A stretch of 5,615 bases of DNA from Candidatus Iainarchaeum sp. (GTDB lineage: Archaea; Iainarchaeota; Iainarchaeia; Iainarchaeales; GCA-2688035), in the NCBI GenBank assembly GCA_028713935.1, contig JAQTNI010000026.1, forward strand, positions 1 through 5,615. Direction: 5' to 3'. Position numbers and translations under genes: made by a program. Below the pieces are notes generated by a model. That model had not been told where the DNA came from. It was given only the letters and a program-made list of their open reading frames with translations, and searched no databases. Below are positions 1,247 to 2,138 of this stretch, in pieces; within the stretch, counting starts at the first letter, position 1; each line of letters starts with the position of its first letter.

Positions 1247-1987
1247 ATGGTGCTACTTGTAGATTTTGAAAAATTGTCTTTGTTGTATCCCCCAAATTAT
1301 AACTTAAATCAGGATACGCGTGTTGCAAAGTGGCTTCCTTTGTATTCCTCTCCAGAACTTGCCGCGTTGGTTGCTGATTTGATGGGGGATGGGCATTTGC
1401 AAGGCCCGCCAAAATGGAGATTTGATTTTTGTTCGAAGAATGTGTCTGAGTTAAAAAGATTTGAGAATGTTTTATGGGGTTTGTTCAGGGTTAAAGGAAA
1501 AATAAGGGACTGCACTACAAATAAATATACCACCAAAAATTATGGTGTAACCTGCAAACCGCTCTCAAGAGTTTTATTTTTAGCTGGAATTCCGCATGGC
1601 AATAAGGTTACAAAAGATTATTCCATTCCAAAGTGGATTTTGGATGACAAAGATTGCTTTGCAGCATTCACCAGAAGGTATTTTGATTGTGAAGGCTTTG
1701 TTGACCTGGGCAAAAAAGAGCTTGAAATTTCAATATCCAAATCAGTCGAGCTTAACAAAAGCGCTATCGCCTTTCTTGATTCGATAAGTTTTGGGTTAGA
1801 TAAATTTTATGACATTAAAACAATGAAACCTTTTTTTGCGTCGCTGAAAATAAAGCGTAAGTGCGGATGCGTTGTTCAAGCGGCAAGGTTGAAGATATCC
1901 CGAAAGCAAAATTTGACTTTATTTTACAAAAATATCGGTTTTGATTCAAAGAAAAAAATGGAAAAGTTAAAGTTAGCCATATCTTAA
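1247..1987 (+). CDS. Free-standing double-motif LAGLIDADG homing endonuclease-like protein (246 aa)
   Basis: There are two LAGLIDADG motifs about 100 aa apart, the spacing of monomeric two-domain enzymes. Motif 1 is LAALVADLMGDGHL (nt 1358-1399). Motif 2 is FTRRYFDCEGFV (nt 1667-1702). The metal-binding acidic residue is kept in both (D of GDG, E of CEG). Other typical elements are IPKWILDDKD just before motif 2 and a C-terminal NIGFDSKKKMEKL. The gene sits in an intergenic position, not inside an intron or intein. Stop is TAA at 1985-1987. Confidence 0.8.
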   Translation: MVLLVDFEKLSLLYPPNYNLNQDTRVAKWLPLYSSPELAALVADLMGDGHLQGPPKWRFDFCSKNVSELKRFENVLWGLFRVKGKIRDCTTNKYTTKNYGVTCKPLSRVLFLAGIPHGNKVTKDYSIPKWILDDKDCFAAFTRRYFDCEGFVDLGKKELEISISKSVELNKSAIAFLDSISFGLDKFYDIKTMKPFFASLKIKRKCGCVVQAARLKISRKQNLTLFYKNIGFDSKKKMEKLKLAIS

Positions 1988-1991
1988 TAAA
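1984..1991 (+). promoter_or_regulatory. Candidate TATA-like box for the tRNA-Phe precursor
   Basis: TTAATAAA overlaps the stop codon of the LAGLIDADG gene. A start about 25 nt downstream (~2013-2016) would include the leader nucleotides 2022-2032 that the BHB helices need. A second AT box, AAATTTAT (2004-2011), would start the transcript near G2033 and lose those helices, so I favour it less. Co-transcription with the upstream ORF is also possible. Confidence 0.2.
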
Positions 1992-2032
1992 CCTTCTTTG
2001 AGCAAATTTATTGGGCTGAAACTGAGCTCAAC

Positions 2033-2138
2033 GGGGACTTATTGTGTGTCTACACCAATAGGCCGTTACTGTAGCTCAGCCTGGTAGAGCAATCGGCTGA
2101 AGACCGGTGTGTCGCGGGTTCAAATCCCGCCAGCCCCA
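2033..2138 (+). tRNA. tRNA-Phe (anticodon GAA) with a non-canonical 32-nt intron between positions 4 and 5
   Basis: The spliced sequence is GGGG|CTG-TA-GCTC-AGCCTGGTA-GAGC-A-ATCGG-CTGAAGA-CCGGT-GTGTC-GCGGG-TTCAAAT-CCCGC-CAGCCCC-A, and it folds into a full cloverleaf. The acceptor stem has 7/7 Watson-Crick pairs (2033-2036 plus 2069-2071 with 2131-2137). The D stem is GCTC/GAGC. The anticodon stem is ATCGG/CCGGT with one T-G pair. The anticodon GAA lies at 2099-2101 with T33 and G37. The variable loop is 5 nt, the T arm has the archaeal-type loop TTCAAAT, and the discriminator is A2138. CCA is not encoded. Without splicing, the contiguous 5' strand GTTACTG (2065-2071) pairs at only 4 of 7 positions. 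Confidence 0.85.
2037..2068 (+). other. BHB-type (splicing-endonuclease) tRNA intron in the acceptor stem, position 4/5
   Basis: The motif is a strict hBHBh' arrangement.
- Central 4-bp helix: ACGG (2031-2034) pairs with CCGT (2063-2066).
- Two 3-nt bulges: GGA (2035-2037) and TAC (2067-2069).
- Intron hairpin h': CTTATTG(T)GTG (2038-2048) pairs with CACCAATAGG (2053-2062) around loop TCTA.
- Outer helix: leader CTGAGCTCA (2022-2030) pairs with TG(T)AGCTCAG (2070-2079), with one bulged T.

Cutting after the second nucleotide of each bulge (2036|2037 and 2068|2069) gives exactly the GGGG-CTG junction needed for a perfect acceptor stem. Confidence 0.75.

Follow-up and report, generated by a model that had tools for sequence, protein, structure and literature searches.

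The window analyzed here is a stretch of 5,615 nucleotides (nt) from a DPANN metagenome-assembled genome, Candidatus Iainarchaeum sp. (assembly GCA_028713935.1, contig JAQTNI010000026.1, positions 1 to 5,615 of the forward strand). It carries a free-standing LAGLIDADG endonuclease gene that is directly followed by a phenylalanine tRNA gene, tRNA-Phe(GAA), and this tRNA gene is interrupted by a short bulge-helix-bulge (BHB) intron. From sequence comparison of this locus with its relatives, we propose with a probability of about 0.5 that the gene product is a free-standing homing endonuclease at the tRNA-Phe locus and that the intron breaks its target site, i.e., that gene and intron would form a BHB analogue of the collaborative homing described in phages. 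The gene and its partner comprise the following features.

1186..1246, forward strand: AT-rich spacer with AAATTAATTTTTAAAT just 5′ of the ATG, from sequence reading the probable promoter of the endonuclease gene.
1247..1987, forward strand: free-standing gene of a monomeric, double-motif LAGLIDADG endonuclease, 246 amino acids, assigned by PDB match, AlphaFold2, Foldseek and its homolog family.
1388..1390, forward strand: codon of Asp48, catalytic (GDG, motif 1), from its invariance in homologs.
1691..1693, forward strand: codon of Glu149, catalytic (CEG, motif 2), from its invariance in homologs.
1983..1999, forward strand: TATA-like CTTAATAAAC, which overlaps the stop codon and precedes a conserved CCTTCTTT; the probable tRNA-Phe promoter, from recurrence in homologous loci.
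2014..2032, forward strand: 5′ leader of the pre-tRNA, from the minimum-free-energy fold and from motif conservation in 28 loci.
2033..2036, forward strand: tRNA-Phe exon 1, GGGG, tRNA positions 1-4, pairing with CCCC 2134-2137 of the acceptor 3′ strand.
2037..2068, forward strand: BHB intron of 32 nt at tRNA position 4/5, without an open reading frame (ORF), from its fold and from covariation across 28 loci.
2069..2138, forward strand: tRNA-Phe(GAA) exon 2, tRNA positions 5-73, from an Rfam tRNA match at 2065-2138 (49.4 bits).
2139..2168, forward strand: T-run and 10-base-pair (bp) inverted repeat (TTTTCTTCTT AAAG AAGAAAA; TTTTCTTCTT/AAGAAGAAAA), from sequence reading probably a terminator.

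The first motif of the ORF product, LAALVADLMGDGHL (amino acids 38-51, nt 1358-1399), contains LMGDGHL with D48 (...LVADLMGDGHL...); the second, FTRRYFDCEGFV (amino acids 141-152, about nt 1667-1702), contains FDCEGFV with E149 (...RRYFDCEGFV...). Both acidic residues were invariant in an alignment of 20 homologs and then in 87 family sequences. With Pfam LAGLIDADG_3 the window protein scored 18.6 bits, i.e., it did not reach the curated family threshold of 22.5 bits, and because Pfam alone gives a sub-threshold match the ORF would stay unassigned. Several homologs, however, bear a precomputed PF14528 match, and neighboring LAGLIDADG clades exceed the Pfam threshold. Searching the PDB by sequence, we found the endonuclease domain of the Thermococcus litoralis VMA (TliVMA) intein with E = 2e-4. 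Every NCBIfam match fell on the endonuclease insert of an intein-containing protein, namely RtcB, V-ATPase, RFC or IF2. An AlphaFold2 model computed with 20 homologs had a pLDDT of 94.8 and a pTM of 0.92, and model and Foldseek together gave a tandem α-β-β-α-β-β-α fold. The best PDB matches in Foldseek were the TliVMA and PI-PfuI intein endonuclease domains, I-Tsp061I and I-DmoI, with a probability of 1.00 to 7qsu, 1dq3, 2dch and I-DmoI; maturase bI3 and WhiA were also among the matches. As predicted by the model, the assignment of the protein to the LAGLIDADG fold is unambiguous.

A Pfam scan detected no Hint or intein domain in the ORF protein. Since the ORF has no such part, starts with its own ATG and is sited between lysK and the tRNA gene, upstream of exon 1, it is a free-standing gene, neither intron-encoded nor intein-encoded. 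An earlier note on this DNA had described a two-motif LAGLIDADG ORF with intact catalytic acidic residues outside any intron or intein, and this description held. We also considered a model in which the ORF lies inside a long intron and rejected it: no exon-1-like GGGG with a BHB half was present upstream of the ORF, and the BHB of the short intron is perfect. The product may be an active homing endonuclease resident at the tRNA-Phe locus.

ARAGORN found no tRNA in the window, and in the Rfam match the acceptor pairs 2-4 were broken. The 3′ acceptor strand CAGCCCC needs GGGGCUG on the 5′ side, of which GGGG is present at 2033-2036 and CUG at 2069-2071. Because these two segments complete the acceptor stem, we assigned 2037-2068 as an intron at position 4/5. 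The spliced product of exon 1 and exon 2 is a perfect, canonical tRNA-Phe(GAA) with the anticodon loop CUGAAGA; the intron-removed form of the locus includes CTCAACGGGGCTGTAGCTCAGCCTGG. A split or permuted tRNA gene was unnecessary to explain the locus. The ORF lies directly before the tRNA, as the earlier note had said, but 45 nt (1988-2032), not 46 nt, separate its stop codon from tRNA position 1.

At minimum free energy, bases 2014-2090 fold into an exact hBHBh′ motif. Its 4-bp central helix pairs ACGG (2031-2034) with CCGU (2063-2066), its bulges of 3 nt each comprise 2035-2037 (GG|A) and 2067-2069 (UA|C) with the splice sites inside them, and a hairpin internal to the intron spans 2038-2062. 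The window intron hence has the two 3-nt bulges, the 4-bp helix and the flanking helices of an archaeal BHB intron, and an Rfam scan of the window gave no match to a group I or group II intron family. Leader bases 2031-2032 contribute half of the central helix. The outer helix is formed between leader 2022-2030 (CUGAGCUCA) and exon 2 bases 2070-2079, and because of this pairing of leader with exon 2 the BHB fold depends on the 5′ leader, i.e., on at least 11-12 nt of it. The tRNA-Phe with a leader-dependent 32-nt BHB intron at 4/5 thus stands as first described.

Across 28 homologous loci, the BHB structure was paired in 84.8% of cells, compared with 30-42% in slid controls. In 62 cells both sides had changed, and 0 of 500 shuffles were as good. 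The central helix was paired in 93.8% of cells with compensatory exchanges of AU/UA to CG, and the leader motif CTGAGC, complementary to GCTCAG of the D-stem, was conserved in these 28 loci. The typical 4/5 intron of related loci has 31 nt (ATTyT...AAGC...GCTT...RACCAkAA) and is preceded by the leader ...CTGAGC..AT; to judge by their sequences, leader, exon 1 and intron are a homologous cassette across loci. A tRNA TATA element overlapping the stop codon had also been proposed, which fits a conserved TAAAAA(A)CTTTCTTT element found after the stop codon in L001, L004, L014, L018, L128, L149 and L151 as well (related loci are given with L numbers). A comparable TATA-like element precedes tRNA-Phe in AR10 (L023).

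To survey related loci, we used two samples. A scan of JGI metagenomes yielded 80 loci, 72 of them with enough flanking DNA. One genome per GTDB species, scanned with a pattern from the tRNA 3′ half, yielded 57 loci, most of which are tRNA-Phe genes of archaea, Iainarchaeota-like and others. Because ARAGORN and Rfam missed intron-split tRNA genes, we located tRNA-Phe genes with introns by motif anchors and a custom spliced aligner; at its gathering threshold, Rfam missed most of the multi-intron tRNA-Phe genes in related loci. The ORF has 28 close homologs (42-60% identity, about 246 amino acids), and a profile search of 1.8 billion cluster representatives gave 101 representatives at E ≤ 1e-30.

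In 72 of the 72 metagenome loci with enough flank, tRNA-Phe(GAA) adjoins the homolog. This linkage is kept across proteins that are only 37-60% identical, and the flanking protein genes vary. When we compared eight homologs, their flanks differed (SerRS and tRNA-Lys, EamA, T2SSE, AdSS, NUDIX and others), and reading of the intergenic DNA revealed a multi-intron tRNA-Phe(GAA) beside all eight. Three arrangements were found: the tRNA lies downstream in the same orientation, at distances of up to 62 nt or overlapping the ORF 3′ end; or upstream and divergent, with its 5′ end facing the ORF start at a distance of 111-374 nt; or, in few loci, downstream and convergent. The earlier note had also allowed that the adjacency in the window could be chance, or ordinary gene-order drift. 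This explanation has nothing in its favor beyond the prior that compact genomes have many tRNA genes, and it is refuted by a pairing that was kept in every informative locus despite differing flanking genes, so that we leave it a negligible probability. The adjacency of nuclease and tRNA-Phe is far beyond chance.

In several loci, exon 1 or tRNA position 1 lies inside or abuts the ORF 3′ end (L104 ~1142-1200, L087 ~1912-1990, L113 ~3157-3230, L133 ~3237-3280, L100 3154 and L144 1842), and the tRNA would therefore be transcribed from within or together with the ORF. Two further contigs deserve mention. L007 has two genes with EndA (tRNA-splicing endonuclease) domains, at 9282-9770 and 12368-12813, less than about 6 kb from the LAGLIDADG/tRNA-Phe pair, and its tRNA-Phe is very heavily fragmented and was only partly reconstructed. 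On L017, the contig of a free-standing gene also holds a topoisomerase VI subunit B gene (9702-10744) with a LAGLIDADG-bearing intein.

We analyzed whether gene and intron occur together. Among loci with a homolog of the window gene (family 1), about 65 are distinct, and about 50 of these have a BHB intron at tRNA positions 3/4 to 9/10; its usual place is 4/5, the others being 3/4, 7/8 and 9/10. This 5′ position holds in the same-strand and in the divergent arrangement. L120/L122 and L123 are convergent, and their intron is found in the T-loop, which is there the tRNA end nearest the nuclease gene; in these loci (L120 and L122, downstream of 964 and 718; L123, downstream of 981) the tRNA-Phe 3′ end overlaps the ORF 3′ end on the opposite strand. 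The intron hence sits at the nuclease-facing end of the tRNA in all three orientations. In the species-representative genomes, a family-1 gene is always directly upstream in L034, L042, L052 and L062 and present as fragments in L037, and a 4/5 or 9/10 intron occurs in five of these five loci. Among the other species-representative tRNA-Phe loci, a 5′ intron was found only in L055 (5040-5180; Iainarchaeum SKW153, JAOAJD010000001.1), where tRNA-Phe has a 45-nt 4/5 intron with a typical GGCTGAG leader. In L055 no LAGLIDADG gene was present within 5 kb upstream of tRNA-Phe, radA is the neighbor, and the intron looks like a leftover after gene loss. Gene and intron are thus present together, as in collaborative homing, with exceptions of both kinds, i.e., 13 loci with the gene only and L055 with the intron only.

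Further LAGLIDADG ORFs in the 57 genome loci were found by an iterated hidden Markov model search, and most of those upstream of tRNA-Phe were confirmed by Pfam above threshold. Short tblastn matches of stop-to-stop ORF translations at gene-less loci were discarded as translated tRNA sequence. In the species-representative genomes, an adjacent LAGLIDADG gene or remnant was found at 18 of 26 intron-containing tRNA-Phe genes versus 0 of 25 intron-less ones (Fisher p = 7e-8, uncorrected for phylogeny). Moreover, in a neighbor-joining tree the LAGLIDADG clades track intron positions: family 1 goes with introns at 4/5 or 9/10, clade A (L021, L023, L040, L051, L060, L064) with introns at 30/31 and 37/38, and clade B (L033, L073) with an 18/19 intron in the D-loop. 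Clade A proteins have about 215-236 amino acids and their genes lie directly upstream of tRNA-Phe, e.g., at 6297-6998 in L023 (archaeon GW2011_AR10, complete genome CP010424.1); the tRNA-Phe there always has the two introns 30/31 and 37/38, which leave a 7-nt micro-exon GCTGAAG. A tRNA-Phe with four BHB introns (4/5, 18/19, 30/31 and 37/38) is found in L014 (1736-1990) and equally in L034 and L080, as if it were a record of successive nuclease occupants. Such four-intron tRNA-Phe genes are missed by standard tRNA finders or fall below the Rfam threshold.

These distributions bear on a second explanation, in which a homing endonuclease does reside at the tRNA-Phe locus but the intron is no shield. 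The enzyme would then cut elsewhere, e.g., at a promoter or upstream junction disrupted by its own insertion, and the intron would be a hitch-hiker or a by-product of a cassette that rebuilds the tRNA 5′ end. This would agree with the 13 loci that have the gene without a 5′ intron, in several of which the stop codon abuts tRNA position 1, and with leader, exon 1 and intron looking like one conserved cassette with the ORF. In phage trans homing, too, the cut may be away from the intron insertion site (PMC2790892). However, the upstream flanks are too variable as a target, the intron keeps to the nuclease-facing tRNA end whatever the orientation, and the association of other LAGLIDADG clades at the same locus with other intron positions is hard to explain without a link between nuclease and intron site. 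We therefore regard an intron without shielding role as unlikely.

For comparison with alleles that lack the element, we used the upstream neighbor of the ORF, lysK, as synteny anchor. The gene order in the window is lysK, LAGLIDADG ORF, tRNA-Phe, cupin ORF, glycosyltransferase (GT) gene and Big7 gene, the protein genes around the pair being the following.

16..1185, forward strand: lysK, class I lysyl-tRNA synthetase (Pfam tRNA-synt_1f, E = 7e-45), its N-terminal part beyond the window.
2199-2477: small cupin ORF, 92 amino acids (Cupin_2, 26.2 bits, slightly below cut-off).
2567-3205: GT gene.
3270-5459: Big7, a large membrane-anchored surface protein with Ig domains (Big_7).

By LysK identity, the nearest relatives of the window are L048 (69%), L063 (64%) and L156 (62%). 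In all three, lysK is followed after about 40 nt by an intron-less tRNA-Phe and then by a GT gene or Big7 gene; neither the nuclease ORF nor the intron is present at their lysK/tRNA-Phe locus. The earlier note had proposed to tabulate ORF against intron presence across relatives and to look at lysK and tRNA-Phe where the ORF is missing; the first comparison gave the co-distribution described above, and the second the direct adjacency in these three loci. The natural empty-site allele of L048 or L156 includes GAGGATATAGCTCAGYCTGGTAGAGC. Over the tRNA body (positions 8-65), L048 is identical to the window, and L063 and L156 have one or two differences. Three acceptor base pairs differ on both strands, GAGGATA/TATCCTC in the relatives versus GGGGCTG/CAGCCCC in the window, which agrees with, without proving, an exchange of the entire tRNA allele together with the cassette. 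The intergenic regions of the window and of the L048 empty site were too AT-rich and diverged to call insertion boundaries. L059 has the D-arm intron (22/23) of L001 but no 4/5 intron and no family-1 gene; it carries a decayed LAGLIDADG gene of another type.

The same three relatives lack the cupin-like ORF between tRNA-Phe and the GT gene. This ORF makes a second indel next to the endonuclease cassette, perhaps within the same conversion tract. The Big_7 protein gene is a conserved neighbor of tRNA-Phe and lysK (window, L001, L018, L036, L037, L048, L063, L156).

Several copies of the nuclease gene are decayed. In L018, a nonsense codon (CAA to TAA) at 1473-1475 interrupts a gene that is intact in L042, the two being identical otherwise. 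One frameshift, after about codon 36 (~1060-1100), is common to L014, L015 and L016; L037 retains only family-1 fragments (5424-6094) beside a preserved 9/10 intron, and L053 and L059 hold remnants of other LAGLIDADG clades. Decayed copies, introns that outlive the gene and its dispensability in close relatives are signs of a selfish life cycle.

They also bear on the possibility that the protein is domesticated and serves tRNA-Phe, either as a maturase or chaperone for the leader-dependent BHB substrate, as the earlier note had suggested, or as a WhiA-like DNA-binding regulator of the tRNA-Phe promoter. Domestication would agree with the tight and ancient linkage to one tRNA gene with a promoter region in common, with the mostly intact copies whose divergence resembles that of neighboring housekeeping genes, and with tRNA 5′ exons that in some loci lie within the ORF 3′ end and imply co-transcription. 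Moreover, the LAGLIDADG fold is known from maturases (bI3) and from WhiA, both of which appeared among the Foldseek matches. WhiA and most pure maturases have, however, lost the metal-binding residues, both of which are invariant here. L048, L063 and L156 manage without the gene, and the gene also occurs beside intron-less tRNA-Phe. Conversely, the homologous 4/5 intron is found without a gene nearby (L055) or beside a pseudogene (L014), the 9/10 intron beside a pseudogene in L037, and BHB introns elsewhere in the same tRNA have no such partner. The persistence of the same introns without the gene or beside pseudogenes disfavors the maturase or chaperone in particular, although those genomes may hold a copy elsewhere, and a domesticated protein appears quite unlikely to us.

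We therefore return to the homing endonuclease whose target site is broken by the intron. The enzyme would recognize about 20 bp of the uninterrupted 5′ end of tRNA-Phe, i.e., acceptor stem and D-arm, approximately positions 1-15, and would cut alleles without the element. Repair from the element-bearing chromosome would then copy the nuclease gene together with promoter, leader, 4-nt exon 1 and BHB intron. In the carrier, the 32-nt intron at 4/5 would split the recognition sequence and thereby render the essential tRNA gene immune. The host splicing endonuclease and ligase (archaeal EndA, RtcB) would excise the intron from a BHB that is partly formed by the element's own leader, leaving tRNA function unharmed. 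Because gene and intron lie within about 100 bp, they would be co-converted and persist as one unit. The findings suggest, without proof, that such introns spread or persist as shields against neighboring selfish nucleases.

As first put forward in the earlier note, the partnership of nuclease and intron gained from the co-distribution, the empty-site relatives, the invariant residues and the decayed copies; the homology of the 4/5 introns and the loci without a 5′ intron did not go along with it, and several observations weigh against it. No intron interrupts the 5′ region of tRNA-Phe in about 13 family-1 loci (L085, L100, L114, L115, L128, L130/L137, L133, L144, L149, L151, L152, L146/L155, L143), and the intron therefore cannot be all that gives immunity. 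Where the stop codon touches or overlaps tRNA position 1, as it does in several of these loci (L100, L133, L144, L115), this could by itself break up a site that extends across the start of the tRNA, yet L128, L149 and L151 are intron-less with a normal spacer. By sequence, the 4/5 introns and their leaders appear homologous and essentially of one origin, so that the correlation would comprise few independent events, and much of it probably reflects co-inheritance of one unit. The target site given above is a guess and cleavage is a prediction. The D-arm sequence GTAGCTCAGCCTGG also occurs in other tRNAs of the same genomes, e.g., in tRNA-Lys of L001, and tRNA-Lys and other tRNA genes contain GTAGCTCAGCC as well; since this part is common to other tRNAs, the specificity of the nuclease would need the variable acceptor stem or the leader. 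The minimum-free-energy z-score of the leader-intron region in the window was weak (-1.23).

The inheritance pattern belongs on the same side. Most nuclease copies are intact, and within clades the nuclease diverges about as much as neighboring housekeeping genes: L001 and L004 share 62% in the nuclease and 59% in SerRS, L004 and L014 72% versus 78-80% in AdSS and ASL, and L010 and L017 53% versus 51-58% in the neighbors. Only the window and L018 were discordant (LysK 27%, nuclease 56%), and these LysK genes may not be orthologs. Intact copies and matched divergence fit long vertical inheritance under selection, possibly for a host function. Furthermore, the element was absent from the IMG/VR viral contigs, GenBank phages and PLSDB plasmids searched.

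A further clade links LAGLIDADG genes to a different tRNA. Its members are fused to an N-terminal helix-turn-helix (HTH) domain (P0028-like) and lie directly upstream of tRNA-Lys(CUU) on the same strand. The gene and tRNA positions are 508-1437 and 1442-1516 in L062, 3292-4116(-) and 3062-3136(-) in L028, 3982-4914(-) and 3871-3969(-) in L069, and 6407-7270(-) and 6217-6367(-) in L064; another member is found at 2303-3344 in L072, where the HTH-fused gene is located between tRNA-Lys(CUU) and tRNA-Phe. Some of the tRNA-Lys(CUU) genes beside this clade hold introns. With the HTH-fused clade at tRNA-Lys(CUU), tRNA-linked LAGLIDADG genes are a wider phenomenon in these genomes. We tentatively consider it possible that DPANN archaea, mainly Iainarchaeota-like, hold a superfamily of free-standing LAGLIDADG homing endonucleases beside and targeting tRNA genes, i.e., tRNA-Phe with several clades and tRNA-Lys(CUU) with the HTH-fused clade. 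Non-canonical BHB introns would arise, spread and pile up there as target-site breakers, travelling with or outliving each nuclease.

Why archaeal tRNA genes have introns at odd positions, and how tiny introns without an ORF were gained or moved, is an open question. The mechanism of archaeal tRNA intron transposition has been called unknown, with protection against virus integration as the only idea offered (PMC4090602). The window locus and about 100 related loci are a directly testable system in which a nuclease gene is tied to a specific tRNA gene, the intron position tracks the nuclease clade and empty-site alleles are available as natural substrates. If the superfamily exists as outlined, it would provide the first concrete mechanism of mobility and selection for ORF-less archaeal tRNA introns. 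Should cleavage map to the insertion site, collaborative homing would reach beyond phage group I introns to archaeal introns that are spliced by proteins, tRNA genes with several introns would be accounted for as a record of successive nuclease invasions, and new LAGLIDADG scaffolds would be at hand whose tRNA-gene targets are defined. In addition, standard tRNA finders miss such intron-split genes, and many DPANN genome bins may therefore be recorded, wrongly, as lacking tRNA-Phe.

In collaborative or trans homing of phages, a free-standing endonuclease gene lies beside an ORF-less group I intron, e.g., F-CphI with the psbA intron of cyanophage S-PM2 or MobE with the nrdB intron of T4 (PMC2790892, PMC6083498). 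The window locus resembles these systems in a free-standing nuclease gene directly beside a gene with an intron too small to encode anything, in the co-distribution of gene and intron, and in an intron near the nuclease gene, as co-conversion requires. Whereas the described cases all have a self-splicing group I intron, with a protein gene as its host, the window has a protein-spliced BHB intron (13-45 nt in these loci) in a tRNA gene. Moreover, the nuclease is of the LAGLIDADG and not of the HNH or EndoVII type, the host is a cellular DPANN archaeon, and cleavage at the insertion site is a prediction here. Collaborative homing and free-standing homing endonucleases are hence already known, their combination with archaeal BHB tRNA introns apparently not; full-text literature searches turned up no account of a linkage between LAGLIDADG genes and either tRNA genes or BHB tRNA introns.

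The closest relatives in sequence and structure are the LAGLIDADG enzymes of introns and inteins, i.e., I-DmoI, I-PorI and I-Tsp061I from rRNA BHB introns and PI-PfuI and TliVMA from inteins. They have the same fold, a two-motif monomer and the catalytic Asp/Glu residues, and an association with BHB-spliced RNA genes is in common. Unlike in these systems, the ORF of the window lies outside intron and intein with its own start and promoter region, and its partner intron is located in a tRNA gene and contains no ORF. A homing endonuclease with tRNA genes as its home is also found in phage T4, where the free-standing GIY-YIG endonuclease SegB is encoded in a tRNA gene cluster and drives preferential inheritance of the region. 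SegB and the window nuclease would both have a tRNA gene region as home and target, with neighboring tRNA genes being co-inherited, but SegB belongs to another nuclease family, acts in a phage setting and has no intron involved.

Finally, according to an idea of Randau and Söll, the presence of introns in tRNA genes, or the splitting of these genes, is a protection against the integration of mobile elements (reviewed in PMC4090602). The homing endonuclease proposed here would give a concrete form to this older idea of tRNA introns as a protection against mobile-element enzymes, as in both cases a BHB intron interrupts the tRNA gene so that a site-specific DNA enzyme fails to recognize it. In the Randau-Söll idea, these enzymes are integrases of viruses or plasmids, whose attB sites lie near the anticodon or T arm, whereas at the tRNA-Phe locus the suspected enzyme would be a LAGLIDADG nuclease encoded next door, with the intron travelling along.

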